Source of the DNA: Caulobacterales bacterium
GTDB lineage: Bacteria; Pseudomonadota; Alphaproteobacteria; Caulobacterales; Caulobacteraceae
Length of the DNA: 64,000 bases
Assembly: GCA_947474395.1 (NCBI GenBank)
Contig: CANJID010000001.1
Span: 18,083-82,082, forward strand
Direction: 5' to 3'
Positions 13,295 to 53,365 of the stretch are shown here, piece by piece. The notes under the pieces are model-generated. The model saw only the letters and a program-made list of their open reading frames with translations, had not been told where the DNA came from and ran no database searches. The stretch's first letter is position 1. Every line of letters begins with the position of its first letter. The position numbers and the translations under genes are program-made.

Positions 13295-13342
13295 ACTCTT
13301 CCCCCTCTGGGGTAAGTACGCCCGAAGGGCGGGAAGGGGGCT
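13295..13342. repeat. Family-A REP/MITE-like element, half copy
   Basis: ACTCTTCCCCCTCTGGGGTAAGTACGCCCGAAGGGCGGGAAGGGGGCT matches the left arms of the elements at 17318 and 36823. It fills the convergent intergenic gap. Confidence 0.8.
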
Positions 13343-13961
13343 ACCGCCGCGGCGCGGTCCCAGGCACCGGCGCGCCCGATGCGCCCGGCGTTCCCGGCGT
13401 CCGGGGCATGGTCAGCCGCAGCGTCATGCCGCGATAGACTTCGACCCGGTCCATCACCACCATGTCCTCGGCGCCGGTCTGGCCCGGATGGGCGCGGGCG
13501 ATCAGGAAGTAGGCGCCGTCCGGCAGGTCCCGGAAGGTGAAGCTGTTCTGGGCGTCGCACTTCTCCGAGCGCACGAACTGGGCGTACTCGGGCGGGGCCG
13601 GGGTGGTGCGGGCGCGCACCTCGGTGACCGAGCGGATCGCTTCCACGTCCGAGCCGTAGAGCGAGACGATGCGGTCGCGGGAGTAGCGGGTCTGCGGCGT
13701 CAGCCCGACGTCGAGGCCGGCGCAGCTCCAGGTCCCGCCGGTGCGGGGCCGATAGGCCAGTGTCCCGACGATGCTGTTGGCGCCCCGGCCGACCGACCAG
13801 GCGAAATCGGCGGTGGTGAACTGGGCCGGGCCGACCGGCGCGGGCGGTGGCGGTGGCGGGGGCGGCGGCGTGGTGGCGCAGGCGGCCAAAGTCAGGACCG
13901 CCAGGGCGGGGCCCGCGATCCTGGAAAACCTACCAAAGCTCGAGCCCTTAGCCATCGTCAC
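13341..13961 (-). CDS. Lipoprotein with poly-proline linker, function unknown
   Basis: 206 aa. Lipobox LTLAAC followed by TTPPPPPPPPPAP. The C-terminal beta-rich domain (DLPDGAYFLIARAHPG) is reminiscent of carboxypeptidase-regulatory-like folds. Overlaps the upstream dioxygenase gene by 14 nt. Confidence 0.6.
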   Translation of the reverse strand: MTMAKGSSFGRFSRIAGPALAVLTLAACATTPPPPPPPPPAPVGPAQFTTADFAWSVGRGANSIVGTLAYRPRTGGTWSCAGLDVGLTPQTRYSRDRIVSLYGSDVEAIRSVTEVRARTTPAPPEYAQFVRSEKCDAQNSFTFRDLPDGAYFLIARAHPGQTGAEDMVVMDRVEVYRGMTLRLTMPRTPGTPGASGAPVPGTAPRR

Positions 13962-14763
13962 ACCCGAAACTTGTATTCCACGCCCGGCTTTCGCTCGATG
14001 TCCGGGGGAAGTTGGCGCGCTTCTCGGAAAAGTAGCGCTGGCGGTGGTCTCCGTCGTCGAGACGGTTGTAGGTGAGATAGAGGATGCGCCGCGCGTCCTT
14101 CGTCAAGTTCGGCTTGGAGGCGTGGGGCACATAGGAGTCGAAAAAGATCACGTCGCCGGGTTCCGTGGGCGTCGGGACGAGGTCGAAGCCCGCCATCTCC
14201 GCCGCCGAAAGGGGCCGCCATTCAGGGCCGATCATGCCGGGCAGGCGCGTGACATTGGCCATTTCCAGGCAGCCGTTCTCCATGGTGGCGCGGTCGATCC
14301 CCACCAGGGCCGTGACGAACAGGTCGGCGTAGGTCGACCAGCCGGCCTGCTGGTCCTGGTGCGGCTCGAAGCCGGCGCCGCCCGCCTCCTTGAAGTTGAT
14401 CTTCTCCTTGAAGAGGCATGCCTCCCCGCCGAGCAGCTGGTCGATCGCCCGGGCCAGCCGGCCCTCGCGCACCAGGCCGTCGAAGCCCGGATGATAGGGG
14501 CAGAAGTTCTCGATCCTCTGGATCACCCGCCGGCCGGCCTCGGTCAGGCTGTCCTCGCGGTAGACCATGTGCTCGCCGGGGACCTCCGGGCGTGCGGTCA
14601 GCTCGTCGGTCCAGGCGGCGATGGCCTGCGCCTCCGCTGGGGGGAAGAAGCCGCGCGCCACCACCCAGCCCATCCGCCGGTATTCGGCCATCTGCCGGGG
14701 GTCGAGCGGTCCGCTCAGAGCCTCGGCGTCCTTCATTCGGGTCGGGCGGGTCGGGGCGTTCAT
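13948..14763 (-). CDS. Phytanoyl-CoA dioxygenase (PhyH) family Fe(II)/2-oxoglutarate dioxygenase
   Basis: 271 aa from an internal ATG (MNAPTRPTRMKD...). HxD facial-triad motif FEPHQDQQ, distal His in FFDSYVPHAS, Arg in ARRILYLTY. 7-nt gap after the upstream nucleotidyltransferase. Confidence 0.75.
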   Translation of the reverse strand: MNAPTRPTRMKDAEALSGPLDPRQMAEYRRMGWVVARGFFPPAEAQAIAAWTDELTARPEVPGEHMVYREDSLTEAGRRVIQRIENFCPYHPGFDGLVREGRLARAIDQLLGGEACLFKEKINFKEAGGAGFEPHQDQQAGWSTYADLFVTALVGIDRATMENGCLEMANVTRLPGMIGPEWRPLSAAEMAGFDLVPTPTEPGDVIFFDSYVPHASKPNLTKDARRILYLTYNRLDDGDHRQRYFSEKRANFPRTSSESRAWNTSFGCDDG

Positions 14764-14770
14764 CGGTCGA

Positions 14771-15532
14771 TCATCGATTGGCGAGCTGGGGAAGGATGGT
14801 GTGACGGGCGCGCTCCACGTCGGCCTCGAAATCGATCTCGGTCCAGGGCAGGTCGCTGACATCCACCGCCCCGAAGCGGGCGGGCTCAGCCAGCATCAGG
14901 TCGCGGATGGCCTCCTCGTACTCGACCTTCAGCACCCCCCTGGCGACATAGTCGTCGCACCGGTCCCACAGGGCCGCCGCCGTCGCCGGTGAGAAGTGGA
15001 AGAAGCCCACCGACTCCCCGTGCCAGTCGTGGGCGTGCTCGGGCTTCTTGCGGAAGTCGACGATGGTCTCGCCGCGGAAGCAGATCTTCACCGGCTCGTC
15101 CCCCGGCTCAATCTCGCGGTCCACGAGAAGCGCGTTTTCCGCCGCGCCTTCGAACAGCCGGTCGATCATCCGCGAATCGTAGAGAACGTCGCCATCCATC
15201 AGCAGCACGGGACGGCCGCTCCGCATCAGCTCGCCCTGGGTCCAGAGCGAGACCAGGCTGCCCTCGGTGTAGCGCGGGTTCTCCACGAAATTCACCCGTC
15301 CTGCCTGTCCCAGCCGCTCGACCTCGGCGCGGATTTCCGCCCCGCGATGGCCCAACGTTATAGAGACGTCCCCGACGCCGGCTTCCCCCAGCGCCTCCAG
15401 ATGGCGCTGCAGCAGAGTCTTGCCGTCGAAGCTTAGCAGGACTTTCGGCCCGTCGTGACTGTCGCCCAGCCGGCGGCCTATCCCCGCGGCAAGGATGATC
15501 GCGCCCGCGTCCCTGTGACCCACGGATGACAC
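14771..15532 (-). CDS. LicC-like nucleotidyltransferase (candidate phosphonate/phosphoalcohol cytidylyltransferase)
   Basis: 253 aa. [13 protein letters not shown]...PKVLL signature of sugar/phosphocholine NTP-transferases, and [10 protein letters not shown]. Confidence 0.8.
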
Positions 15533-15654
15533 GCCCGCGATGCTCCTGCTGCATTTCTTCGAGAACGGCGAAGGTTTATAGAGCGGGCTTGCCGCCCCGC
15601 AAGGGGAACGGGCGGGCTTACGCCCCGCCGCAGTGGAAGTGTTGGATTTTCGCC

Positions 15655-17310
15655 ATGCCCCTCGACCAAGCCCGCCAGGGCGCCGCCTCGACCGACAAGG
15701 CCGCCGCGCCCGCCACGCGCTTCGCCGCGCTGCGGCAGGAAATCTTCGGGGACCGGCTGTCCTTCCTGATGGAGGCCCACGACGGCCTCTCGGCCAAGAT
15801 CGTCCAGGAGCAGGGCTTCCGCGGCATCTGGGCCTCGGGCCTGACCATGTCGGCGGCGCTGGGCCTGCGCGATTCGAACGAGGCCTCCTGGACCCAGGTG
15901 CTGGACGTCCTGGAGTACATGTCCGACGCCGTCTCCATCCCGATCCTGGTGGACGGGGACACCGGCTACGGCAACTTCAACAATGTGCGGCGACTGGTGC
16001 GCAAACTCTGCGATCGCGGGATCGCCGGGGTCTGCATCGAGGACAAGCTGTTCCCCAAGACCAACTCCTTCATCGGCGAGGCCCAGCCGCTCGCCGACAT
16101 CGAGGAGTTCTGCGGGCGCCTCAAGGCGGGCAAGGACAGCCAGACCGACGACGATTTCACCATCGTCGCCCGGGTCGAGGCCCTGATCTCCGGGCGCGGC
16201 ATGGAGGAGGCCCTGCGGCGGGCCGAGGCCTATCATTCGGCCGGCGCCGACGCGATCCTGATCCACTCCAAGAAGGCCGTGGCCGATGAGATCTTCACCT
16301 TCTGCGAGCGCTGGGGAAACCGCGCTCCGGTGGTGATCGTGCCGACCATGTACTACGCCACCCCGACCGACCTGTTCCGGCAGGCGGGGGTCTCCACCAT
16401 CATCTGGGCCAACCACCTGCTGCGCTCCTCGATCTCGGCCATGCGCGAGACCGCCCGCCGCATCCACGAGGACCAGTCCCTGGCCGAGGTGGAGGGCCGC
16501 GTCGCCACGGTGAAGGAAATCTTCGGCCTGGTGGGCAACGCCGAGCTGGAGGAGGCCGAGCGCCGCTACCTGCCGGGCGGGGCCAAGACCCGCGCCATCG
16601 TCCTGGCCGCCTCGGGCGGGGACCTGGGCGAACTGACCCGCGACGCCCCCAAGTGCATGATCGATATCCGTGGCCGCTCCCTGCTGCAGCGCCTGGTCTC
16701 CACCCTCAACGAGGGCGGGGTCCGCGAGGTCGCGGTGGTGCGCGGCTATCGCAAGGAGGCCGTCAGCCTGCCCGGCATCGTCACCGTCGACAACGATCGC
16801 TACGCCGAGACGGGCGAGCTCTATTCGCTCTCGACCGCCCGCCACCTGATCGAAGGCGAGACGGTGGTGGCCTATGGGGACGTCCTCTTCCGCAACTTCA
16901 TCCTCGAGAGCCTGATGGGCAGCGGCGCGGACATTGTCCTGGCCGTCGACGCGCTGAACCTGCCGGGCGCCCGCGCCGGGGTGCGCGACCTCGTGGTCGC
17001 CGACCGGGTCTTCTCCGGGGACTACCTCGACGACGCCCCGGTGAGCCTGGTCCGCATGGGCCACGACGTCCTCTCCGAGGCCGCCAGCGGCGAGTGGATG
17101 GGCCTGGCCCGCTTCAGCGCCAAGGGCGCCGAATGGCTCCGCGCCGAGATCGAGGCCATGGAGGCCGAGGGCCTGCTGGAGACCGCCGACCTGCCCTCCC
17201 TTCTGACGCGCCTTGCCGCCAAGCACCCGGTGCGGGTGAAGTACTTCAGCGGCCACTGGATGGACGTCGACAACCTCACCGACCTCGCCGACGCCCGCAA
17301 CTTCACCTGA
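15655..17310 (+). CDS. ppm: Phosphoenolpyruvate mutase fused to a C-terminal nucleotidyltransferase domain
   Basis: 551 aa from an internal ATG. The N-terminal ~300 aa carry [10 protein letters not shown] and [13 protein letters not shown] (PEP mutase EDKxxxxxNS). The C-terminal ~220 aa carry AIVLAASGG...[14 protein letters not shown]...VAYGDVLF (NTP-transferase fold). Confidence 0.9.
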
Positions 17311-17317
17311 GGCTCAC

Positions 17318-17451
17318 ACTCTTCCCCCGCCTGGGGGAAGTACGCCCGAAGGGCGGGAAGGGGGCTGAAGGGCGTTGCGGCCATGGTCGCGCCCTGCGGC
17401 CCCTATCGGCCCGAGGCAAGCTCGGCCCACTTCCCCCAGAGGGGGAAGAGT
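17318..17451. repeat. Family-A MITE/REP-like element, full copy
   Basis: About 22-bp imperfect terminal inverted repeats: ACTCTTCCCCCGCCTGGGGGAAG and CTTCCCCCAGAGGGGGAAGAGT. Each terminus is itself a GC hairpin. Lies in the 234-nt ppm-ppd gap. Confidence 0.8.
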
Positions 17452-17544
17452 TAGGAACGCTCGTCCTCAGCGCCCATTTGCCCTTTCGACTTCGCCGGCC
17501 AAACGCCTTAAATTGCTGATCATTCCAGGGGCAATTCCGACCGC

Positions 17545-18711
17545 ATGATCACCGCAGACGAGTTCATGGCCGAAGCCGGCCGCCGCGGCTTCGACTTCTA
17601 CACCGGCGTGCCGTGCAGCTATCTCACGCCCCTGATCAACGGGGTGCTCTCCAACCGCGCCCTGACCTATGTGGGGGCGGCAAGCGAGGGGGAGGCGGTG
17701 GCCATCGCGGCAGGCGCGTATCTGGCGGGCCGCAAGACGGTCGTGATGTGCCAGAACTCCGGCCTGGGCAACGCGGTCAATCCGCTGACCTCGCTGAACG
17801 CGCCCTTCCGCATTCCGACCCTGTTCATCACCACCTGGCGCGGCCGCCCCGGCGAGCCTGACGAGCCCCAGCACGAGGTGATGGGCCGCATCACCCAGGA
17901 CCTTATCGGCCTGATGGAGATCGAGCAGGCGCCGTTCCCGAACGAGGCGGCGGCCCTCGCCCCCGCCATCGACGCCGCCGTCCGTCACATGGATTCGGCC
18001 TCGCTTCCCTTCGCCTTCGTGATGAAGAAGGGCGACGTCCAGGATGGCGGCCTCGACCAGTCGCCCCTGTCCCGCCCGGCCGCCGGCCGGCGCGAGGACT
18101 TCGCCACCGGCGGCGAACGTCCGGCCCGCGCCGCCGTGCTGACCCGGTTCCTAGAGCTGACCGACGACCGCACCGCCGTCATCGCCACGACCGGCAAGTG
18201 CGGGCGCGAGCTCTTCACCCTCGCCGACCGGGACCAGCACCTCTACCAGGTCGGCTCCATGGGCGGGGCGAGCGGCATGGCCCTGGGGCTGGCCCTCAAC
18301 ACGGAACGCCCGGTGGTCGTGCTCGACGGGGACGGGGCGGCCCTGATGAAGCTCGGGACCTTCGCCACCGTCGGGGCCTACGCCCCGAAGAACCTGCTCC
18401 ACATCCTCCTGGACAACGGCGTGCACGATTCCACCGGGGGGCAGGCGACCGTCTCGGCGTCCGTGGACTTCGCCGCCATCGCGCTGGCCTGCGGCTACGG
18501 CTACGCGGCGTCCTGCGACAGTCTTGAGGGTTTCACTGCAGCCTTCCGCGCCGCCGCTTCGGCTACACGCCCGGCCCTGATCCACATGCGCATGGCCCCG
18601 GGCTCGATCGACAAGCTCGGCCGCCCGACCGTGACGCCCGCGGAGGTCGCCGCCCGCTTCAAGGCCTTCGTCGCCGGGGCGCCGGTCCGCAGCCCCGAGG
18701 CCGTTGCATGA
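17545..18711 (+). CDS. ppd: Phosphonopyruvate decarboxylase (ThDP-dependent)
   Basis: 388 aa. FYTGVPCSYLTPLIN N-terminus, ThDP motif VLDGDGAALMKLG...LDNGVHDSTGGQ. Confidence 0.9.
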   Translation: MITADEFMAEAGRRGFDFYTGVPCSYLTPLINGVLSNRALTYVGAASEGEAVAIAAGAYLAGRKTVVMCQNSGLGNAVNPLTSLNAPFRIPTLFITTWRGRPGEPDEPQHEVMGRITQDLIGLMEIEQAPFPNEAAALAPAIDAAVRHMDSASLPFAFVMKKGDVQDGGLDQSPLSRPAAGRREDFATGGERPARAAVLTRFLELTDDRTAVIATTGKCGRELFTLADRDQHLYQVGSMGGASGMALGLALNTERPVVVLDGDGAALMKLGTFATVGAYAPKNLLHILLDNGVHDSTGGQATVSASVDFAAIALACGYGYAASCDSLEGFTAAFRAAASATRPALIHMRMAPGSIDKLGRPTVTPAEVAARFKAFVAGAPVRSPEAVA

Positions 18712-19697
18712 AGTGGCCGGCCATCCTCGGCATCCTGATCGGCCTTGGCCTGGCGATCACGCTGATCGCCGCCAACGACGTGGGCAAGATCCTGGCCGCC
18801 CTCGTCGGCGCCGGCTGGGGCATCCTCCTGGTGATCGTCCTGCGCCTGCCCCAGACCATCGCGTCCGCGCTCGGATGGCGCGCCCTGGTGGCCGAGCCGG
18901 GCCCCAATATCGCGGTCTTCACCGGCCTGCGCTGGATCCGGGAGGCGGTGAACAACCTCCTGCCGGTGGCCGGAGTCGGCGGCGACGTCGTCCGCGCCCG
19001 CCTGCTCGCCCTCCAGGGCGTCAGCCTGAAGGGGGCCTCGGCCAGCGCCGCGGTGGACCTCAGCGTCGAGATGGCCAGCCAGATCGTCTTCGCCCTGATG
19101 GGCGTCGGCATGCTGCTGCTCTATCGCCCCGGGGTGGACACCCTCGGTTGGGTGCTGGGCGTCATCGGCGTCGGGGCGGTCATCGCCGGCTCCTTCATGC
19201 TCAGCCAGCGCTTCGGCCTGTTCAAGCTGGTGGAGAAGACCCTGGTCGCGGCCTCCGAGAAGGCCGGCTGGGCGGCGCTCGGCGACATCTCCGGCCTGCA
19301 TGAGGCGGTGGTGGCCCTCTACCGCAGCCCCGGCCGCTTCCTCCATTCGGGCGCCTGGCACATGGCGTCCTGGTTCTTCGGCGTGCTCGAGCTGTGGGCG
19401 GCCCTGCATGTGCTCGGGGTCGAGGCCGGGTGGCGCGAGGCCCTGATCATCGAGAGCCTCGGCCAGGCCATCCGCGGCGCCGCCTTCGCCGTGCCGGGGG
19501 CGCTCGGCGTGCAGGAGGGCGGCTACGTCCTGGTCTGCGCCCTCTTCGGCATCCCGCCGCAGCAGGCCATCGCCCTGTCCCTGATCCGGCGCATCCGCGA
19601 CCTCGTCCTGGGCGTGCCGGCCCTCATCGTCTGGCAGCGCATCGAGGGGCGTATGTTCGCCCGCCGCGCCGCTGCATCCGAGGCCGCGCCGTCGTGA
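18708..19697 (+). CDS. Polytopic membrane protein of the lysyl-PG-synthase TM-region/UPF0104 (flippase-like, HpnL-related) family
   Basis: 329 aa, multiple TM helices. RWIREAVNNLLPVAGVGGDVVRARLL motif is typical of the family. ATGA overlap with ppd and GTGA overlap with the transaminase. Confidence 0.7.
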   Translation: MKWPAILGILIGLGLAITLIAANDVGKILAALVGAGWGILLVIVLRLPQTIASALGWRALVAEPGPNIAVFTGLRWIREAVNNLLPVAGVGGDVVRARLLALQGVSLKGASASAAVDLSVEMASQIVFALMGVGMLLLYRPGVDTLGWVLGVIGVGAVIAGSFMLSQRFGLFKLVEKTLVAASEKAGWAALGDISGLHEAVVALYRSPGRFLHSGAWHMASWFFGVLELWAALHVLGVEAGWREALIIESLGQAIRGAAFAVPGALGVQEGGYVLVCALFGIPPQQAIALSLIRRIRDLVLGVPALIVWQRIEGRMFARRAAASEAAPS

Positions 19698-20797
19698 GCG
19701 ACAGCCCGCTCCTCCTCACCCCCGGGCCCCTGACCACGCGGGTCGAGACCCGCCGCGCCATGATGCGCGACTGGGGCTCGCGCGATCCGGCCTTCATCGC
19801 CCTGACCGCCGAGCTGCGCGAGCGCCTGCTGAAGGTGGCGGGCGGGGAGGGGACGCACGTCGCCATCCCCCTCCAGGGCAGCGGCACCTTCATCGTCGAG
19901 GCGGCCGTCGCCTCCATCGTTCCCCCCGAGGGCAAGCTGCTGGTCCTGGCCAACGGCGCCTACGGCGAGCGGATGATCGAGATCGCGCGCCGCATGGGCC
20001 GCGCCGTCGAGGCCCTGCGCTGGGCCGAGGACCGCCCCGTCGAGCCCGGCGCCGTCGCCTACGCCCTGGCCGCCGACCGGGACATCACCCACGTCGGCCT
20101 GATCCACTGCGAGACCACCACGGGCCTGCTCAATCCGCTGCAGGCGATCGCGCAGGCGGTGTCCGACGCCGGCCGGAGCCTGATCCTGGACGCCATGTCG
20201 AGCTTCGGCGCCCTGCCCATCGATCTTCAGACGACCCCGGTCACGGCCCTGCTCGCCTCTTCCAACAAGTGCCTGGAAGGCGTGCCGGGCATCGGCTTCG
20301 CCCTGGTCGACGCCCTCGCCGTCGGCAAGGCCAAGGGGAACAGCCCCTCCCTCAGCCTGGACCTTGCCGCCCAGCACCAGGGTTTCGAGGCCAACGGCCA
20401 GTGGCGCTTCACCCCGCCGGTCCAGGTGGTCGCCGCGGCCGTGGAGGCCCTGCGTCTGCTGGAGGCCGAGGGCGGCCCACGCATGCGCCTCTCCCGTTAC
20501 CAGGCCAATTTCGATACCCTCGCCGTCGGCATGCTGCGGCTGGGCTTCCCGCTCTACCTCGATCCCGGCCTGCAGGCGCCCATCATCGCCACCTTCCTGC
20601 CGCCCACGGATCGGGCATTCGCCTTCGAGCGGCTGTACGCGGGACTGGCGCAAAGAGGTTTTCTGATCTATCCGGGGAAATTGACGCAGGCGGAAAGCTT
20701 CCGCATTGGTTGTATAGGCGCGCTTGAGCCTGCGGATTTTGCTAGGTTGCTCGTAGCAATAGAGGCGGTCGCCGTCGAAATGGGCCTCTCGGCCTGA
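19694..20797 (+). CDS. phnW: 2-aminoethylphosphonate:pyruvate aminotransferase (PhnW/AepZ type)
   Basis: 367 aa from an internal GTG (VSDSPLLLTPGPLTT...). Class V aminotransferase with PLP lysine in SSNKCLEG. Confidence 0.88.
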   Translation: MSDSPLLLTPGPLTTRVETRRAMMRDWGSRDPAFIALTAELRERLLKVAGGEGTHVAIPLQGSGTFIVEAAVASIVPPEGKLLVLANGAYGERMIEIARRMGRAVEALRWAEDRPVEPGAVAYALAADRDITHVGLIHCETTTGLLNPLQAIAQAVSDAGRSLILDAMSSFGALPIDLQTTPVTALLASSNKCLEGVPGIGFALVDALAVGKAKGNSPSLSLDLAAQHQGFEANGQWRFTPPVQVVAAAVEALRLLEAEGGPRMRLSRYQANFDTLAVGMLRLGFPLYLDPGLQAPIIATFLPPTDRAFAFERLYAGLAQRGFLIYPGKLTQAESFRIGCIGALEPADFARLLVAIEAVAVEMGLSA

Positions 20798-20811
20798 AAC
20801 AACTTGTAACA

Positions 20812-21324
20812 GTGAGCCGGATGCTCAAGTTTTTCGCCATCACTGCCGTCCTGGCCACCCTGGTCTCTTCGCCCGCCGCGGCGGAGACCGGGCCGATCAG
20901 AGACATGGCCGCCGGCCTGAAGCGCCTGGTCGCCGCCGGCGCGCCCGGCGACGACGCCGCGCCGCTGCAGATCGTGGTCTGGAACCTGAAGAAGGCGCTG
21001 GGCACCGTGCGCGTGGCCATCTGCACCCCGGCTACCTTCCTGAAGACCGACTGTCCGTGGGAGGGCGTCGCCCAGGCCACGCCCCAGGGCGCGGTGGTGA
21101 CCATCGCCGGCCTGCCGCCGGGGGTCTACGCGGCCCAGGTGTTCCAGGACGAGAACGACAACCACCAGGTCGACCGCAATGTGCTGGGCGTTCCCAAGGA
21201 AGGGGTGGGCTTCTCCAACGACGCCCCAATCCTGCTGAAGGCGCCCAGCTTCGCCGCCGCCTCCTTCGAATATGCGGGCGAGGGCATGACCCTGCGCGTG
21301 AAGCTGCGCCACTTCACGCCGTAA
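20812..21324 (+). CDS. DUF2141 secreted protein
   Basis: 170 aa, signal peptide. QVFQDENDNHQVDRNVLGVPKEGVGFSNDA motif characteristic of DUF2141. Starts 15 nt after phnW. Confidence 0.6.
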   Translation: MSRMLKFFAITAVLATLVSSPAAAETGPIRDMAAGLKRLVAAGAPGDDAAPLQIVVWNLKKALGTVRVAICTPATFLKTDCPWEGVAQATPQGAVVTIAGLPPGVYAAQVFQDENDNHQVDRNVLGVPKEGVGFSNDAPILLKAPSFAAASFEYAGEGMTLRVKLRHFTP

Positions 21325-21375
21325 GCCCCCACCGGCCCGTCATCGTCGGGCTCTTCCTGAGCGACCGGCTTTGCG

Positions 21376-22758
21376 TCAACCGAACAGGGGGACCGGTCCG
21401 CGGCCGCCGCCGTTCCAACTGGCCCAGTTCGGGAACACGTACGGCATGTCCGCCGCAGGGACGCCGAACCGCTGGACCACGCCGCCAAGATATTCCTCCA
21501 GGGCGATCGACGGGATCCAGCGACCGTCGTCGGACGAATCCTCGGGCCCGCGGAACGTCGTATCTGGGTATCGGCCGTGTATCCGGGCCCCGGCGAGTCC
21601 CCCGCCAATCACCAGATGGTTCGACCCCCAGGCATGGTCCGAGCCCGCCTGTGCGTTGCCGCGATAGACCCGGCCGAAGTCCGAGAGGGTGAAGGTGGTG
21701 ACGTCGGCGGCCACGCCGAGCGCTTCCATCGCTTTTTGGAAGGCGGCGAGCGCGGCGGCGAGGGCGGCGTAGAGGTTGGCCTGCCGGCCTGCGGTGTTGT
21801 CGGTCTCGTCGACCTGGCCCGCGTGGGTGTCGTAGCTGCCGTGGCCGGCGAAAAAGATCTGCCGGGCGTGGCCAAGCGCGGACCGGGCTTCGATCAGCCG
21901 CGCGATCCTCAGGAGCTGGGCCGCGATGTCGGTGTTAAGCATAACGCCCTTGGCATCCTTGAAATAGGCGTCGACGGTGGCGGTTCGGGTCAGGATCGCG
22001 TTTGCGGCGAAGGCCTGATCGTAGGCGCGCGAGAAGCCGAGCCCGGTCAGCCGCGTCACCGGTCCCTGGGAGTCCGCGTCGGCGAAGGCGGTCAGGCCAG
22101 CTTGCCTTGCGACCACCACCGCGTCGCGGCTCGAGGCGTCGTAACCGTGGCGCGCGATGCTCCCCGTGGGCGGCAACACCAGGGGAGAGCTTCGCTGGCC
22201 GAGCAGCGCCAGGCTGGAGCCCGCCACCGAGATCAGCGGCGATATCGCGGGCGCGCCGTCCATCCGGTCATTGATGCGGCCCATGAAGCCGTCGACGTTC
22301 ATGGCTCTGGCCTGCAGCCCTTGCCACACATGCTGCTGGCCAGAGTGTGACATCAGGTGCAGGGGGCGCAGGTCCGGCCGCGACAGGTAGAGCCGTCGGT
22401 CGAGCGGCTGGAACAGCACGCCCGTGTTGAGCACGACGTTCAGCGAGCCCTTGTCCCAGAGGGGGCGAAGCGGCGCCAGGCTCGGGTGCAGACCGAAGGG
22501 CGTGCCCGCAAGGGGCTTGAGAGCCTCCCGCGCGAGCGCGAGCTGGGGTCCCCGGCCGGCGGCGTACCCCGCATAGCGGTCGTCGGTCGGCACGATCATG
22601 TTCCAGCCGTCGGCGCCCCCGAAGAGGAAAACGCCGACCATGGCGCGGTAGGGCGCGCGGGTCTGGGCCATGGAGGCCGACCGGCCAAGCTGGGCCAGGG
22701 CGGCCGCTGCCCCCGATCCGGCGGCGAGCCTGACGATGTCGCGGCGGGAGAGGGTCAT
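21376..22758 (-). CDS. DUF1501 protein (sulfatase/alkaline-phosphatase superfamily) with Tat signal
   Basis: 460 aa from an internal ATG (MTLSRRDIVRLAAGSGAAAALAQ, a twin-arginine signal). C-terminal GSDHAWGSNHLVIGG. Confidence 0.8.
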   Translation of the reverse strand: MTLSRRDIVRLAAGSGAAAALAQLGRSASMAQTRAPYRAMVGVFLFGGADGWNMIVPTDDRYAGYAAGRGPQLALAREALKPLAGTPFGLHPSLAPLRPLWDKGSLNVVLNTGVLFQPLDRRLYLSRPDLRPLHLMSHSGQQHVWQGLQARAMNVDGFMGRINDRMDGAPAISPLISVAGSSLALLGQRSSPLVLPPTGSIARHGYDASSRDAVVVARQAGLTAFADADSQGPVTRLTGLGFSRAYDQAFAANAILTRTATVDAYFKDAKGVMLNTDIAAQLLRIARLIEARSALGHARQIFFAGHGSYDTHAGQVDETDNTAGRQANLYAALAAALAAFQKAMEALGVAADVTTFTLSDFGRVYRGNAQAGSDHAWGSNHLVIGGGLAGARIHGRYPDTTFRGPEDSSDDGRWIPSIALEEYLGGVVQRFGVPAADMPYVFPNWASWNGGGRGPVPLFG

Positions 22759-22760
22759 AT

Positions 22761-24455
22761 CTAGCGGTCCACCTGGAACAGAGGCGAGCTGGCGGCGAGG
22801 TACAGGGCGGTCTGGGCCCGTTGGCGCGCCTGCGTCGTCGCGTTCTTGTTGACGATGGCGGTCAGCGCCCCCCGCATGGCGCTGCGCTGCGTCGCGCTCA
22901 TGCCGTTGCCGAGCAGCAGCAGGTTCACGCGGTCCATCAGCCCCTCGACGTCCGCGGCCGCGGCCTCCCAGTCTGCCCACAGGGGCTTCGTGCCCGTGGC
23001 GCTCTGCGTGTGGGGCTTGAACTCCTTGCGGTCGGCATCGCCTTCGACGGTCCAGTCGTAGACGAGGTTGTGCCGGCCGACGTCGGCCGCCGTCGTCAGC
23101 AGCTTCGACGGGGGGCTCACCAGCGGCGCGCCGAGCGGCAGCGGATAGTCCGGCGGATAGAAGTTGAACACCGAGGGCGCGGACCACAGCGGCTGGCCCA
23201 TCACCCCGTCGCGCGTGGTGAAGACGTAGCCGTCCGTGGTCATGCCGATGGCCCGGGCCAGGGCGACGGCCAGCAGCACCGGCTCCTTCACCTTGCCTTC
23301 GATGGCCGCGAGACGGTCCCCGCGCGCCTCCGGGTCGAGCAGGATCGCCCGCACCACCGACCTCATGCTTCCGCGCACGCCCTGGCCGTTGTCGGCGAAC
23401 ACCCGCGCGACCCGTTCGACGTAGGCGGGGGTGGGGTTGGAGACGACGAGCTGCTGGATCAGCGACTTGGAAACATACGGCGCCACGTTGGGGTGGTTGA
23501 AGACCGCGTCCACGACCGCGTCCACGCTTGCGCTCTGGCTTGCCTGGGCGGGGACCGTCACGCCCAGGAAGCTCTTGGCGTCCGCGTCGTAATCCGAGGC
23601 CGAGCGGATCATCCGCTGGGTGTAGTCGATGCGGCTCTTGTCCTTCGGCGACGCCCCGGGGAAGCGCACGCAGGTCCATCCGGTCAGGGCCCGCGCGACT
23701 TCGTGGACGTCGCTGCCGGTGTAGGCCGGTATCGGCGCGCCTTGGACGTCGAGCTTGAGGCTGCCGTCGAGGTTCAGCATGTCCTCGCCGATCGAGAACA
23801 GCTGCATCAGTTCCCGCGCGTAGTTCTCGTTCGGCGAAGCTTTGGTCGACCCCGCCATGTCGAGGTAGTCGCCCATGTACGCGTTCAGGGTGACCGCCTT
23901 CAGCAGGTCCCGGTAGTTGCCGAAGGCGTTGTCCAGCAGCAGCTGGTGATAGGTCGCGAGGCCGGCCGTCGAGTCGATATCCTGGTTGGCGACGACCAGC
24001 AGCTCGGCCAGGGCGAGCGCCACTCTCTGGCGGAGCTGGTCGTTCCGCATGACCGCGTCGGCGTAGAAGCGCATCGCGACCGGCGTCGACTGCCAATAGG
24101 TCGCCTTGCAGCTCGCGGCCTCCGACCCGGATTTCGACCGGCAATAGCTTTGCGGGATATTCCGGTCGGCGATGATGTCCTGGTAGCCGCTCTCGGCGAG
24201 GGCGAACTGCTCGTCCAGCCAGGCGGCGGGTCCCACCTGGCTCATATGCGCGATCAGCGCCGGGGTCGGTCCGAACGTCGCCTGCTTGGCCAGCCGGACC
24301 GCATCGGGAGCGGAAAACGCCGCAACCGTGACGGCCTCGGGCGCCATGAACCGCGGCTCGGGCGGGTTCGCCCCTGTCAGGGCCGCAGCGCCCGCGCACG
24401 CCGCCGCGCAAGCCAGGGCGGAAGCGGCGAGGATCGACGGCGATGGCGACGCCAT
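22761..24455 (-). CDS. DUF1800 protein
   Basis: 564 aa. ...MGDYLDMAGSTKASPNENYARELMQLFSIG... motif of DUF1800. Stop lies 3 nt before the DUF1501 start (a canonical pair). Confidence 0.8.
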   Translation of the reverse strand: MASPSPSILAASALACAAACAGAAALTGANPPEPRFMAPEAVTVAAFSAPDAVRLAKQATFGPTPALIAHMSQVGPAAWLDEQFALAESGYQDIIADRNIPQSYCRSKSGSEAASCKATYWQSTPVAMRFYADAVMRNDQLRQRVALALAELLVVANQDIDSTAGLATYHQLLLDNAFGNYRDLLKAVTLNAYMGDYLDMAGSTKASPNENYARELMQLFSIGEDMLNLDGSLKLDVQGAPIPAYTGSDVHEVARALTGWTCVRFPGASPKDKSRIDYTQRMIRSASDYDADAKSFLGVTVPAQASQSASVDAVVDAVFNHPNVAPYVSKSLIQQLVVSNPTPAYVERVARVFADNGQGVRGSMRSVVRAILLDPEARGDRLAAIEGKVKEPVLLAVALARAIGMTTDGYVFTTRDGVMGQPLWSAPSVFNFYPPDYPLPLGAPLVSPPSKLLTTAADVGRHNLVYDWTVEGDADRKEFKPHTQSATGTKPLWADWEAAAADVEGLMDRVNLLLLGNGMSATQRSAMRGALTAIVNKNATTQARQRAQTALYLAASSPLFQVDR

Positions 24456-24552
24456 GAGCTGACTCCGCCGCTCGTCCTGAGCGGTGACCGCCCCAGACGA
24501 AACTGCGCCGGTTAACCACCGGTAAGCGGAGAGCGACGATTGCTCGTCAGCG

Positions 24553-25143
24553 CTACGGAGCGCGCTGCTTCATCAGGGCGGCGAGGCTCAGCCACAGCGC
24601 TATGGCCGGGGTGATCAGGCTCGCCGCCACCAGCATGGGCTTGATCTGGCCGAGCCAGATCAGGATCGGCACCAGGATCATCAGGTCGTCGGGATCGACG
24701 TCGAAGCGCCCGAACCGCCAGGGCTTCAGCTCCACCAGCTTCCAGACGTTGAGCTGCCAGAACATCACCCCGATGCCGAGGCCGGCGGACACCCCGAGCC
24801 AGACCGCGATCGAGCCCCACACCGGGATCAGGCCGATGCCGATGCCGATGAAGCCCGCCACCCCGGCGATGCAGTCGCAGATCAGGTCGTAGACGTGCCC
24901 GCCCGGGCTGGACTGGCCGGTTTGGCGGGCCAGCTCCCCGTCCGCCCGGTCGAGCAGCATGGAGAGCACGAACACCAGTCCGCCGACGCCGAGCCACAGG
25001 GCCCCGGCCTTGGCGTAACAGACGGCCGAGGCGATCGCGGTGATCAGGCGCAGGGTGGTGATCTGGTTCGGCGTGACCTTGGTCGGGGCGATCGCCCGCA
25101 CCACGGGCCGCACGATCTGGTGGATCACCGTATTGGAGCTCAC
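24553..25143 (-). CDS. CDP-alcohol phosphatidyltransferase family protein
   Basis: 196 aa. Complete DRADGELARQTGQSSPGGHVYDLICD motif (D-x2-DG-x2-AR-x8-G-x3-D-x3-D). 4-5 TM helices. Confidence 0.85.
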   Translation of the reverse strand: MSSNTVIHQIVRPVVRAIAPTKVTPNQITTLRLITAIASAVCYAKAGALWLGVGGLVFVLSMLLDRADGELARQTGQSSPGGHVYDLICDCIAGVAGFIGIGIGLIPVWGSIAVWLGVSAGLGIGVMFWQLNVWKLVELKPWRFGRFDVDPDDLMILVPILIWLGQIKPMLVAASLITPAIALWLSLAALMKQRAP

Positions 25144-25298
25144 GCGGGCGGGTCCTTAGCCTGGGGCGATGGGCGCGCAATGTGTCGAGGCGACAGGACG
25201 ATGACAAGCCCGCCCCTCCCTACGGTCACGGTTGCGAGGCGTGACCGGCTATGCTCTTGAAAGCTCCCGGCCTTTGCCGGCAAAGGCCCTGAGGCGTC

Positions 25299-27926
25299 AT
25301 GAAGCCATCCCTGATCGCCCGGATCGTCGCCGCCAGCTGCAGCTATGCCTGGGCGGTGATCGCCGCGTCCCTGGTCCTCGTCGCCGTGGCGGTGGTCTAT
25401 GTCGGCGGCCACTTCGCCATGACCACCGACACCGCCGAGCTGATCTCGCCCAAGCTGGCCTGGCGCCAGAACGAGGCGGCCCTCGACAAGGCCTTCCCGC
25501 AGAACAACGACCTGATCGCCGTGGTGGTCGACGGCGCCACGCCCGAGCGCGCGGAGGAGGGGGCCGCCGCCTTGTTCGCCAAGCTGTCGGCCATGAAGGA
25601 CAGTTTCCCCCGCGTCACCCGCCCCGACGGCGGGCCCTTCTTCGCCCAGAACGGCATTCTCCTGCTCCCCACCAAGGAGGTGGAGGCCACCGCCAACCAG
25701 CTCCTCGCGGCCCAGCCCTTCCTCGGCGCCCTGGCCGCCGATCCGAGCCTGCGCGGGGTGATGGGCAGCCTGTCGACCGCCCTGATGGGGGTGAGCGGCG
25801 GGCAGGCCACGATCGACGACCTCGACCGGCCCATGAAGGCCTTCGGCGACGCCCTGCAAGGCGTGGTCGAGGGCAAGCCCAAGCCGTTCTCCTGGCGCGC
25901 CCTGATCTCCGGCCAGACGCCGGGCACCCGCGAGACCCGCAAGTTCATCCTGGTGCAGGCCAAGCTCGACTACGGGGCGCTGGAGCCGGGGTCCAAGGCC
26001 TCCGAGGCCATCCGCGGCGTCGCCCGCTCGCTGCAGCTCGACAAGGACCACGGCGTCGACGTCCGCCTCACGGGCTCGGTGCCGCTGGCCGACGAGGAGT
26101 TCGCCAGCCTGTCGGACCGGGCGGTGCTGATGACCAGCGCCATGATCCTGGCCATGATCGGCATGCTGTGGCTCGGGGTGCGCTCGGTCCGGATCATCGT
26201 CTGCATCCTTGTCGCCACCTTCATCGGCCTGGTCTTCACCGCCGCCGCGGGCCTGGCGGTGGTCGGGCGCTTCAACCTGATCTCGGTCGCCTTCATCCCG
26301 CTCTTCGTCGGCCTGGGAGTGGATTTCGGCATCCAGTTCAGCCTGCGCTACCGGGCCGAGCGGCGGCAGTTCCCGGACCTGAAGCAGGCCCTGGCGGCGG
26401 CGGGCGCCTCGGTCGGCAATTCCCTGGCCCTGGCCGCGGCGGCCATCGCCGTGGGCTTCTTCGCCTTCCTGCCCACCGCCTATATCGGCGTCTCCGAGCT
26501 TGGCGTGATCGCGGGTATCGGCATGATCATCGCCTTCGCCCTGTCGGTGACCCTGCTACCGGCCCTGGTGTGCGTCGCCAAGCCTTCGGGCGAGGACGAG
26601 GAGGTCGGCTACAAGAGCTTCGCCCCCATCGACCGCTTCCTGGAGGAGCGCCGCTCCCTGGTGCTGAAGATCGCCCTGGGCGCGGCCATCGTCTGCGCCT
26701 GCCTGATGCCGTTCCTGCGGTTTGACTTCAATCCGCTGCACCTGCGCAGCCCGCACGTGGAATCCATGCGGGCGCTGGCGGACCTGATGAAGGACCCCGA
26801 CCGCACCCCCAACACCATCGACATCCTCACCCCGTCCCTGGCCGACGCCGACGCCCTGGCCAAGCGCATCTCCGCCCTGCCGGAGGTGTCCCAGGCGGTG
26901 ACCCTGTCGAGCTTCATCCCCTCCGACCAGGACGCCAAGCTGGCCGCCCTGAGCGACGCCTCCCTGCTGCTGGACCCCAGCATCAATCCCTTCGAGACCA
27001 CGCCCCCGCCCACCGACGCCGAAACCATCAAGTCCCTGGCCGAAACCGCCGCCGGCCTGCGCGCGGCCGCCACGGGAGACAGCGGAGGGGCGAAGAACGC
27101 CCGCCGCCTCGCCGACCTCTTGGACCGCCTCGCCAAGGCCGGGCCGGAGCTCCGCACCAAGGCCGCCGCCACCCTGATGTCGCCGCTGGGCACGGTGCTG
27201 GACCAGCTTCGCTCCACCCTCCAGGCGCAAGCTGTGACCAGGGAGAGCCTGCCCGAGGACATCCGGTCCGACTGGGTGGCCGCCGACGGCCGCGCCCGCA
27301 TCCAGGTCTTCCCCAAGGGCGACTCCAACGACAACGCCAACCTGCGGCGCTTCTCCAAGGCCGTGCGCGCCGTGGCCGCCGACGCCGCCGGCACGCCGAT
27401 CTCGATCCAGGAGGCGGGCAACACCATCGTCACCGCCTTCCTGCAGGCCGGGCTGTGGTCGTTCCTGGCCATCATCGCCCTGTTGTGGGCGGTGCTGCGC
27501 CGCCCGAAGGACGTGCTCCTGACCATGGTCCCGGTGGTGCTGACGGGCCTTCTGACGCTGGGCACCTGCGTGGTGATCTTCCAGCCGATCAACTTCGCCA
27601 ACATCATCGCCCTGCCGCTGCTGTTCGGCATCGGGGTCGCCTTCAACATCTACTTCGTCATGGCCTGGCGGGCGGGGGCGACGAACCTGCTGCAGTCCAG
27701 CCTGACGCGAGCGGTGCTGTTCAGCGGTCTGACCACCGGCATGGCCTTCGGCGCCCTGATCCTGTCCAGCCACCCCGGCACGGCCAGCATGGGCAAGCTG
27801 CTGATCATCTCCCTGTTCTGGACCCTGGTGACCGCCCTGCTGTTCGAGCCGGCCTTGCTGGGCAAGCACGACGGCTCCCGCGAGGAAGTCTGCGACCCGG
27901 AGCCGCTAGAGGAGAGGGCGGTCTGA
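25299..27926 (+). CDS. hpnN: Hopanoid-associated RND/MMPL-type transporter
   Basis: 875 aa with two 6-TM bundles and large periplasmic loops. The N-terminal sequence pattern and hpn context match HpnN. Confidence 0.85.
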   Translation: MKPSLIARIVAASCSYAWAVIAASLVLVAVAVVYVGGHFAMTTDTAELISPKLAWRQNEAALDKAFPQNNDLIAVVVDGATPERAEEGAAALFAKLSAMKDSFPRVTRPDGGPFFAQNGILLLPTKEVEATANQLLAAQPFLGALAADPSLRGVMGSLSTALMGVSGGQATIDDLDRPMKAFGDALQGVVEGKPKPFSWRALISGQTPGTRETRKFILVQAKLDYGALEPGSKASEAIRGVARSLQLDKDHGVDVRLTGSVPLADEEFASLSDRAVLMTSAMILAMIGMLWLGVRSVRIIVCILVATFIGLVFTAAAGLAVVGRFNLISVAFIPLFVGLGVDFGIQFSLRYRAERRQFPDLKQALAAAGASVGNSLALAAAAIAVGFFAFLPTAYIGVSELGVIAGIGMIIAFALSVTLLPALVCVAKPSGEDEEVGYKSFAPIDRFLEERRSLVLKIALGAAIVCACLMPFLRFDFNPLHLRSPHVESMRALADLMKDPDRTPNTIDILTPSLADADALAKRISALPEVSQAVTLSSFIPSDQDAKLAALSDASLLLDPSINPFETTPPPTDAETIKSLAETAAGLRAAATGDSGGAKNARRLADLLDRLAKAGPELRTKAAATLMSPLGTVLDQLRSTLQAQAVTRESLPEDIRSDWVAADGRARIQVFPKGDSNDNANLRRFSKAVRAVAADAAGTPISIQEAGNTIVTAFLQAGLWSFLAIIALLWAVLRRPKDVLLTMVPVVLTGLLTLGTCVVIFQPINFANIIALPLLFGIGVAFNIYFVMAWRAGATNLLQSSLTRAVLFSGLTTGMAFGALILSSHPGTASMGKLLIISLFWTLVTALLFEPALLGKHDGSREEVCDPEPLEERAV

Positions 27927-28326: not shown

Positions 28327-28977
28327 TCAGCCCTTCAGCAGGCCGTCGGCGGTGGCGTTGATCTTCTTGACCAGGGCCTCGGCGCCGCCCTTGTCGATGG
28401 TGGCCGAGAAGTCGGAACGCTTGCTGGCAAGCTCCGAGACCCCGCCCAGATAGAGCACGTCCAGCACCTTCCAGGTCGAACCCGATTGGCGGACGCGGAA
28501 GGTGAGGTTCACCGGGTCCTTCTTGGGGGTCACGATCTGGGTCTTGATCAGCTTCTCGGTCCCCCGCGTCACCACATTGGGGTCGATCTTGAAGCTCTGG
28601 CCGGACCAGCCGTCGAAGTTGGAGGCCCAGCTCGCCACGCTCATGCGGGTGAAGGCCTTGACCAGGGCGGCCTGGTCGTCGGCCGACAGGGTGGTCCACT
28701 TGGGGCCGACGGCGAAGCGGGTCATGGCGGGCAGGTCGAAGGCCGCGGTCACGGCCGGCTGCAGCTTCTTGTAGCGGCCGTCCACCCCGGCGGCCTTGCC
28801 GGCCTTCATGGCGTCGATCAGGGAGCCGGTGAAGGCCTCCACCGTGGCGATGGCGGGATCGGCGGCGGCGGCCTGCACATAGGCGGGGACGCTCAGCGCC
28901 AGGAGGGTGAGTGGCGCAATGGCGGCCAGGCCCAGGCGGCGGAGCGGGGAGGCGGTCTTGGTCACGGTAGCCCTCAC
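28327..28977 (-). CDS. hpnM: MlaC/Ttg2D-like periplasmic lipid-binding protein (HpnM-type)
   Basis: 216 aa, signal peptide, toluene-tolerance Ttg2D-like sequence. GTGA-coupled downstream of dxs. Confidence 0.75.
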
Positions 28978-53087: not shown

Positions 53088-53365
53088 GATCTGACGTTCC
53101 CTTTGGAGGGAAGCCTTTAAGCGTTCCATCCAGGCCTAAAGCCGGACGCCAAATGGCAACGCCAGACCAAATTATTGATTATCGAACTTGTTGGGAGACT
53201 AAGGGCCGAATCTATTCTGGGGGGCAAGGCGTAAACTCCATACCCTCGGCCTCGAGCCAAAAGATCCACGCTTAAGCTCTCAAAAGATGGCTTTTGCGCG
53301 CGTTCGGTGAAGCTTGGCCGGCGAAGCCGCCGCCCGCCTCGCCGGCTGTGGCCGTCGGGCAAGGC

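Follow-up and report, generated by a model that had tools for sequence, protein, structure and literature searches.

Which head group is moved, and to which lipid, by a small membrane transferase whose gene lies between a phosphonate operon and a set of hopanoid genes? This question is raised by a CDP-alcohol phosphotransferase gene (24553..25143, minus strand) in a stretch of 64,000 nucleotides from a Caulobacterales bacterium (NCBI GenBank assembly GCA_947474395.1, contig CANJID010000001.1, positions 18,083 to 82,082 of the forward strand), and this whole stretch is called the window below. The window is one large hopanoid locus (hpnA, hpnB, hpnD, hpnE, shc, hpnG, hpnH, ispH, FPP synthase, dxs, hpnM and hpnN), which is adjoined by an operon for the synthesis of 2-aminoethylphosphonate (AEP). 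The transferase is probably the head-group transferase of a conserved AEP module, and the module belongs to a family that has already been predicted. As a full explanation, held with about even confidence, the enzyme would move the head group from CMP-AEP (or CMP-1-hydroxy-AEP) to a lipid alcohol, for which a bacteriohopanepolyol is the likelier candidate and diacylglycerol the rival. The more specific proposal is put forward rather tentatively: the transferase family may cap bacteriohopanepolyols with AEP or 1-hydroxy-AEP, and the resulting zwitterionic phosphono-hopanoid would be flipped by HpnL and exported by HpnN and HpnM.

Identity and fold of the transferase

The open reading frame (ORF) of the transferase begins with GTG, an AAGGA Shine-Dalgarno sequence lies 9 nt upstream, and the N-terminus (MSSNTVIH) is in register with the starts of 30 homologues in an alignment. 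The product of 196 aa carries the complete superfamily signature (D-x2-D-G-x2-A-R-x7-8-G-x3-D-x3-D) as the motif D65-RA-D68-G69-EL-A72-R73-x8-G82-HVY-D86-LIC-D90. All eight motif residues (D65, D68, G69, A72, R73, G82, D86 and D90) are invariant in the 30-sequence alignment, and the Pfam family PF01066 was matched with 49.5 bits (cut-off 22; E 7.7e-13). A sequence-only reading of this DNA had described a 196-aa protein with a complete motif, transcribed divergently from hpnN across a shared region of 155 nt and lying 3.8 kb from the phosphonate operon. These observations hold: the ORF, the alignment and the PF01066 score agree with the first, the intergenic region spans 25144-25298, and the distance from the end of the last AEP synthesis gene (20797) to the transferase stop (24553) is 3.76 kb. 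The transferase is not a chance ORF, because 695 homologues were found at E <= 0.001 among 5.8 billion proteins. An overlapping frame of 231 aa (24512-25207) was rejected as a gene and regarded as an Arg/Pro-rich shadow ORF.

The AlphaFold2 model built from the 30-sequence alignment (pLDDT 89.2, pTM 0.81) contains a juxtamembrane helix plus six long helices (residues 6-21, 25-45, 48-75, 80-104, 112-132, 151-163 and 167-194), which is the six-transmembrane (6-TM) fold with N-terminal juxtamembrane helix of the superfamily. A family-specific DPDD (150-153), which follows a short hairpin, is invariant in the same 30 homologues as the motif. As a speculation, the invariant cytoplasmic hairpin with DPDD (142-153) could be a candidate site for binding the head-group amine.

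When the model was searched with Foldseek, the top 29 listed ranks were all occupied by members of the CDP-alcohol phosphotransferase family. AF2299 gave the highest TMq (0.77-0.79) and IPCT-DIPPS reached 0.68, and AF2299 also ranked first in a profile search against PDB sequences (E 3e-9). These proteins of Archaeoglobus fulgidus (PDB 4o6m/4o6n/4q7c and 4mnd) are thus the best profile and fold match and have the motif form DG-E-(I/L)-AR in common with the transferase, whereas the identity is only about 18-21% and the archaeal proteins have an extra cytoplasmic domain. Enzymes of the AF2299/DIPPS type use soluble CDP-alcohols as donors, and the acceptor of IPCT-DIPPS is soluble as well. The eukaryotic enzymes CEPT1 and CHPT1 (PDB 8gyw and 8ero) catalyze a chemistry like the one proposed here, in which a soluble CMP/CDP-linked amino-alcohol head group is transferred to a lipid hydroxyl. 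However, they are about 380-400 aa long with more helices and a diacylglycerol acceptor, whereas the transferase has 196 aa and 6 TM helices (TMq 0.42-0.60); it does not have the eukaryotic CEPT/EPT-type architecture, and the likeness is a functional analogy only. In the older literature, CEPT/CHPT-type enzymes are described as using CMP-AEP.

Bacterial PIP synthases and PgsA (PDB 6h59, 5d92 and 7drj) resemble the transferase in size class and in having the 6-TM fold (TMq 0.64-0.74 for PIP synthases, 0.50 for PgsA, and about 0.5 for PssA), and they differ in using a CDP-diacylglycerol donor. It might be asked whether the transferase is an ordinary housekeeping paralogue of PgsA, Pcs or PIP synthase that lies near hpnN by chance, which the sequence-only reading had kept as its alternative. 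Superfamily and size are the same, and homologues carry JGI auto-annotations as 'phosphatidylglycerophosphate synthase' or 'archaetidylinositol phosphate synthase'. The scores and the distribution make this alternative extremely improbable. The source genome (99.65% complete) has three PF01066 genes, and one of them is a true pgsA (L001 1483-2085), which passes TIGR00560 with 127.1 bits (cut-off 109.1), the separate gene that the sequence-only reading had proposed to look for. On the same PgsA model the transferase reaches 22.8 bits, and on the CDP-OH-type PssA model (TIGR00473) 20.9 bits against a cut-off of 107. Furthermore, the transferase was found in only 41/401 and 24/375 genomes of two class samples, was found neither in two sampled genomes of the same family nor in one of the same order, and keeps a conserved synteny with AEP and hpn genes. 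The third PF01066 gene (L003 757-2975, contig C31) is an ORF of 438 aa, has a long extension at the N-terminus and is directly followed by a YegS/DAG-kinase-like lipid kinase. No NCBIfam equivalog fits its product (best score 44 bits), and the gene may belong to another head-group pathway.

A second reading of the same family relations concerns the polarity of the reaction. As in PgsA and PIP synthase, CDP-diacylglycerol could be the donor and 1-hydroxy-AEP the acceptor, with phosphatidyl-1-hydroxy-AEP as the product. The best NCBIfam matches of the transferase are indeed the archaetidylinositol-phosphate synthase (NF040950, 56.1 bits) and PIP synthase (NF045883, 54.7 bits) models, the PIP synthase structures match the fold well, and the hydroxyl needed would come from a conserved dioxygenase of the AEP module. 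However, both matches fall far short of the family cut-offs (180 and 170 bits) and cover only residues 5-108, and PIP-synthase identity was rejected on scores and gene context. The reversed reaction would also leave no role for two conserved cytidylyltransferases and would not explain the hopanoid associations described below. We consider it quite improbable.

Linkage to phosphonate synthesis

The AEP operon on the plus strand starts with a gene for a PEP mutase fused to a MobA-like cytidylyltransferase of the Ppm-PntC type (15526..17310; TIGR02320 388.5 bits, cut-off 319.55, residues 70-338; PF12804 at residues 358-474). It is followed by phosphonopyruvate decarboxylase (Ppd, 17545..18711; TIGR03297 429.6 bits, cut-off 312.5), by the MprF-flippase-like (LPG_synthase_TM) membrane protein HpnL (18708..19697; TIGR03476 286.4 bits, cut-off 195.65; PF03706 110 bits) and by 2-aminoethylphosphonate-pyruvate transaminase (AEPT, 19394..20797 as listed; NF010006 465.1 bits, cut-off 296, residues 102-464). 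The true start of the AEPT gene is probably near 19697, since the family match begins at residue 102. Two genes on the minus strand are divergent from the operon. They encode a second, stand-alone nucleotidyltransferase of the PntC/LicC-like type (14771..15532; PF12804 61.5 bits) and a PhnY*-like Fe(II)/2-oxoglutarate dioxygenase of the PhyH family (13948..14862; PF05721 81.9 bits; NF052437 147.9 bits, below the cut-off of 500), for which AEP 1-hydroxylation is proposed.

It has been reported in the available text of Li & Horsman 2022 (PMC8942020) that a family named 'Burkholderiales_CDP-OH' accounts for 318/882 pepM neighbourhoods in RefSeq, and the authors identify this group with the 'Group 1 phosphonolipids' of Yu et al. 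2013. Its seven-gene core is given as a Ppm-PntC fusion, Ppd, AEPT, a 2-oxoglutarate oxygenase, a second PntC and two lipid-synthesis genes. PF01066 and PF03706 were equated by us with the two lipid genes via the group name and related loci, as the available text names neither. The window has this same seven-gene core, of which all members lie within 13948-25143; the function of the clusters is a prediction only. The window differs in that the transferase, which adjoins the operon in relatives, is split from it by a DUF1800/DUF1501 gene pair and stands head-to-head with hpnN in a full hopanoid locus.

When 185,579 species genomes were searched by a pattern scan, 495 transferase relatives were confirmed, and the best 80 loci were kept for a tblastn comparison with 23 window proteins, in which matches covering at least 40% of the query were counted and many loci were cut by contig ends. 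In 57/80 related loci, pepM, ppd or AEPT was present in the fetched flanks of the transferase orthologue, at a distance of up to 10 kb, and in 29/80 AEPT lay within 400 bp of it. The other partners recurred as well, with HpnL in 54/80, the second nucleotidyltransferase in 48/80 and the dioxygenase in 27/80; 13/80 loci were without both phosphonate and hopanoid genes. The transferase is 52-60% identical to the copies of Roseomonas, Sphingomonas and Inquilinus, and in a quick tree it falls inside a clade of 52 rows (SH-aLRT 94), of which 41 lie within 1.5 kb of AEPT. Within this set of sequences, identity and tree together make it an ortholog of the pepM-cluster copies. The tree is unrooted, since the branches that lead to the PgsA of the source genome and to the L003 domain are about 7 substitutions per site long. 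With the phosphonate linkage and the non-housekeeping scores, comparative genomics supports the suggestion of the sequence-only reading that the enzyme may couple CMP-AEP or its hydroxylated form to a lipid.

Two observations were made on the clusters themselves. Many of them (L028, L030, L069-L073, L077, L083 and L089-L091) have two paralogous transferases, often one copy near AEPT or pepM and the other adjoining hpnN, hpnA or HpnL; the window has one. A record titled 'Mycobacterium sp. KBS0706' (NZ_VCCH02000054.1, L036) shows the gene order of Inquilinus and its transferase nests among Inquilinus in the quick tree, and probably the label is wrong or the assembly contaminated.

The linkage extends to whole genomes. 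In five genomes whose transferase locus was without pepM, a pepM above the TIGR02320 cut-off was found elsewhere (5/5). In a sample of 401 alphaproteobacterial genomes, pepM (E <= 1e-80) was found in 33/41 carriers of the transferase, compared with 18/360 non-carriers. However, 7/41 of these carriers show no pepM, and a phosphonate may therefore not be the donor in every case. Among the pepM-less carriers, G060 has pepM fragments at contig ends only, and G177 (98% complete, 20 contigs), G302, G324 and G021 gave only distant isocitrate-lyase-family matches. In G177 the genes are arranged as shc-hpnD-hpnB-hpnN-nucleotidyltransferase-dioxygenase-HpnL-transferase, and in G302 and G021 the nucleotidyltransferase and the dioxygenase are kept beside the transferase. 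Since the partners are kept in these genomes, the minimal unit appears to consist of cytidylyltransferase, dioxygenase, HpnL and transferase, and AEP synthesis appears to be an add-on that is present in most, not all, carriers. Either AEP is imported by the pepM-less organisms, or the module would install a phosphate-linked amino-alcohol.

The latter option can be extended to the family. The stand-alone LicC/PntC-like enzyme would then make a CDP-aminoalcohol, e.g. CDP-ethanolamine or a hydroxylated relative, and the head group would be phosphate-linked, with AEP used only where pepM is present. This is consistent with the sets kept in G177, where the set lies in an hpn locus, and in G302 and G021, and with the RefSeq name of the corresponding partner in Roseomonas marmotae ('phosphocholine cytidylyltransferase family protein'). 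However, AEP genes occur in the window and in most of the related loci, pepM is enriched among the carriers, phosphonate hydroxylases are the nearest match of the partner dioxygenase although its score is below the cut-off, and the carriers without pepM could import AEP. A donor that is not specifically a phosphonate is therefore judged improbable.

Linkage to hopanoids and the choice of acceptor

The transferase is closely associated with squalene-hopene cyclase (SHC). In the alphaproteobacterial sample, where the 41 carriers span 25 families, SHC (E <= 1e-60) was found in 41/41 carriers and in 83/360 non-carriers (124/401 overall), and in a second and independent class sample, which was built around a gammaproteobacterial carrier, in 23/24 carriers compared with 38/352 genomes not scored as carriers (background 61/376); these counts take in related genomes, and Fisher p-values overstate their significance. 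When unpublished genomes (G250; G449, G551, G706 and G718) are left out, the counts become 40/40 and 19/20. The carrier set at E <= 1e-30 takes in paralogous clades (110-145 bits), and with carriers at 150 bits or more only, SHC was found in 18/18 and pepM in 15/18. The SHC-less gammaproteobacterial carrier (G541) is a 1.8-Mb assembly, in which the transferase lies on a 5.6-kb contig (C193) beside AEPT and ppd. Five further carriers without hpn genes near the locus also have SHC (5/5); in four of them the score exceeds the cut-off, and in the fifth the gene is cut short where the contig ends.

The position of the gene points in the same direction. Hopanoid genes are present in 49/80 related loci, and in 10/80 (Acetobacteraceae, Caulobacteraceae and Micropepsaceae) no more than 400 bp separate hpnN from the transferase, as in the window. 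The window gene hpnN (25299..27926, plus strand) encodes a hopanoid RND (MMPL) transporter (NF052374 1158.3 bits, cut-off 1100; TIGR03480 1047.9 bits), and it is followed by hpnM (28327..28977, minus strand) for an MlaC-like hopanoid-associated protein (TIGR03481 192.1 bits, cut-off 160.1). For example, replicon p1318-3 of Roseomonas marmotae (L097, 7956-36525) has the order hpnA-GT-hpnC-hpnD-hpnE-shc-hpnG-hpnH-ispH-(hypothetical)-CDP-alcohol transferase-AEPT-LPG-synthase-domain protein (HpnL)-aepY-aepX-'phosphocholine cytidylyltransferase family protein'-polyprenyl synthetase ... MMPL transporter-VacJ lipoprotein. This replicon is extrachromosomal (430 kb), and the hopanoid and AEP supercluster lies just downstream of two IS701 transposase genes. 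In the sampled genomes of the same family (G080 and G378) and the same order (G251), the transferase, pepM and SHC were all not found; because all three genes are missing together, the hpn and AEP region appears to be patchy, gained or lost as a block.

Natural fusions join the transferase directly to the hopanoid transporter. In the window the transferase is unfused. In L088 (G273), a single ORF of 1097 aa contains PF01066 (residues 31-167) and MMPL, and AEPT is divergent just upstream. A region-restricted search with this fusion gave six database proteins of 1057-1089 aa with both domains, whose transferase part is 39-100% identical and whose transporter part passes the HpnN model TIGR03480 in 6/6 (805-991 bits, cut-off 751.85). 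The transferase is N-terminal in five and C-terminal after HpnN in one (P0128). The existence of both arrangements implies that the fusion arose independently two times or more. In the quick tree, four fused forms lie in a clade beside that of the window transferase and two in more distant paralogous clades. A search for longer fused relatives with the window transferase as query found none at E <= 1e-20, which is weak evidence. Two long frames around the transferase, in L092 (1149 aa) and L093 (494 aa), were rejected as fusions, as only PF01066 was found in them, and other long frames upstream of the transferase in related loci were assumed to be stop-poor GC-rich DNA. A natural fusion of another kind is P0127 (689 aa), in which a class-III aminotransferase (PF00202) is joined to the transferase family; its best NCBIfam match is a PigE-type aminotransferase with 426.6 bits.

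Bacteriohopanepolyol was weighted over diacylglycerol because of the SHC co-occurrence, the position in hpn loci and the HpnN fusions. If instead diacylglycerol accepted the head group from the same donor, the product would be a phosphatidylethanolamine-like phosphonolipid, and the hopanoid link would reflect co-regulation or co-export of outer-membrane lipids. Diacylglycerol is universal, and the occurrence of SHC in 64/65 carriers of the two class samples would be left unexplained; recurrent fusions to the hopanoid-specific HpnN in both domain orders, and transferases inside hpn loci in many families, also argue against it. A diacylglycerol acceptor is considered unlikely. In its favour, diacylglycerol is used by eukaryotic CEPT/EPT-type enzymes of the superfamily, of which CEPT1 matches the model with TMq 0.60. 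This type of product is also implied by the 'Group 1 phosphonolipid' label, and the two extra cluster genes are called 'associated with phospholipid biosynthesis' in the available text of Li & Horsman 2022 (PMC8942020).

Several points weigh against a phosphono-hopanoid, in addition to the pepM-less carriers and the two cautions on the counts given above. To our knowledge, the characterised lipid-acceptor members of the superfamily all use diacylglycerol. In the source genome (99.65% complete) no phosphatidylserine decarboxylase (Psd, PF02666) and no CDP-OH-type PssA was found, and the organism may be without the usual route to phosphatidylethanolamine; a zwitterionic AEP-diacylglycerol could replace that lipid and would be a sensible product. 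Both hpnI and hpnJ are present elsewhere in the same genome, so the transferase module is not its sole hopanoid tailoring route. The whole cluster is found (as L037) in Muricoccus (Roseomonas) pecuniae DSM 25622, and in the available text of a 54-strain survey (PMC12583986) this strain gave only plain bacteriohopanetetrol (BHT), about 0.1 mg/g, with no phosphorus-containing hopanoid reported; this too would fit a diacylglycerol acceptor. According to the available text of PMC8942020, no phosphonolipid has been characterised from the Burkholderiales_CDP-OH group. For the sequence-only reading, which had offered diacylglycerol or a polyol lipid such as bacteriohopanetetrol, it is the polyol option that gains most support from the SHC co-occurrence and the HpnN fusions.

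The available texts also show how far these ideas have been expressed before. As a prediction, the phosphonolipid idea has been published before (PMC8942020, PMC8776678). Linkage of pepM and shc has been noted as a possible 'terpene-phosphonate' in Roseomonas (Guzman & Vilcinskas 2021, PMC8776678), in Nitrosococcus (Wang et al. 2020, PMC7285500) and in one sentence of PMC8942020. These clusters show the same juxtaposition of shc/hpn genes and pepM, and Roseomonas aerilata and R. nepalensis, which are named there, correspond to the loci L005 and L016. In the available texts, neither the CDP-alcohol transferase nor HpnL is given a role, and HpnN fusions and SHC co-occurrence are not reported. 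The function of HpnL is still called unknown in the available text of papers from 2025-2026 (bioRxiv 10.1101/2025.07.29.667474; PMC12583986). In a full-text literature search, which left subscription journals mostly outside, no paper was found that gives the transferase an acceptor or describes the HpnN fusions or the SHC restriction, and no phosphorus-containing hopanoid and no characterised bacterial AEP-lipid transferase were found. The hopanoid link, i.e. SHC co-occurrence, position and fusions, is where the evidence goes past the printed predictions, and the comparative evidence points to an unprecedented acceptor for a predicted family.

Proposed pathway and its surroundings

In the proposed pathway, AEP is made by Ppm-PntC, Ppd and AEPT, a step which rests on family assignments above curated cut-offs. 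CMP-AEP would then be made by a cytidylyltransferase, either the PntC domain fused to Ppm or the stand-alone enzyme or both, and the head group may optionally be converted to 1-hydroxy-AEP by the PhnY*-like dioxygenase. The 6-TM transferase, with its metal site of D65, D68, D86 and D90 at the cytoplasmic face, would transfer the phosphonyl group from CMP to the hydroxyl of a membrane lipid with release of CMP. The likeliest acceptor would be an extended hopanoid with a bacteriohopanetetrol-type side chain, which would yield a phosphono-hopanoid. HpnL would flip this lipid to the outer leaflet, and its transport to the outer membrane would be the task of HpnN and HpnM.

The intergenic region shared with hpnN (25144..25298) holds two inverted repeats. 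One is a perfect 20-nt palindrome (GGCCTTTGCC/GGCAAAGGCC) found by an inverted-repeat scan at 25269-25288, 10 nt before the hpnN ATG, and the other is CGGTCACG-N9-CGTGACCG at 25223-25247. They may serve as an operator or form a leader hairpin. A scan of 24400-25400 for sigma-70-like promoter and terminator consensus gave 0 and 0 sites. Downstream of AEPT, the operon side contains a DUF2141 protein (20812..21324, plus strand; PF09912 88.1 bits), a recurrent cluster member whose distance from the transferase is at most 400 bp in 12/80 related loci (Sphingomonas, Inquilinus and Micropepsaceae). The pair between the AEP operon and the transferase (21376-24455, minus strand) consists of a DUF1501 gene (about 21376-22760; PF07394 79.6 bits) and a DUF1800 gene (22761-24455; PF08811 299.5 bits). 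Neither had a tblastn match in any of the 80 related loci, so the pair looks like a local insertion.

Two further observations concern the borders of the region. Downstream of the dioxygenase, a 206-aa ORF (13341-13961, minus strand) has no Pfam or NCBIfam match, and a copy with 43% identity adjoins hpnN in Caulobacter sp. S45 (L062). Just past hpnA, two large paralogues (50835-53129 and 53449-55665, minus strand) combine a SapA-protease-like N-terminal region with serralysin/RTX-like repeats.

The HpnN fusions and the SHC co-occurrence unite two questions, the product of the cluster and the role of HpnL, in a single hypothesis that is testable and predicts a mass. The calculated [M+H]+ would be 654.4857 for BHT-AEP (C37H68NO6P) and 670.4806 for BHT-(1-hydroxy-AEP). 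If the proposal is true, the phosphono-hopanoid would be a new class of bacterial lipid, and the pepM gene-cluster family that is most abundant in RefSeq would have its missing product. HpnL, which has been an orphan among the 'hopanoid' genes ever since it was named, would receive its first function, and a C-P-bonded, phosphatase-resistant head group would join hopanoid biology. The lipid would also represent a new phosphonate sink in soils and fresh water, and possibly a new class of biomarker precursor. If the acceptor were diacylglycerol, the transferase would still be the first assignment of a bacterial AEP-lipid synthase.

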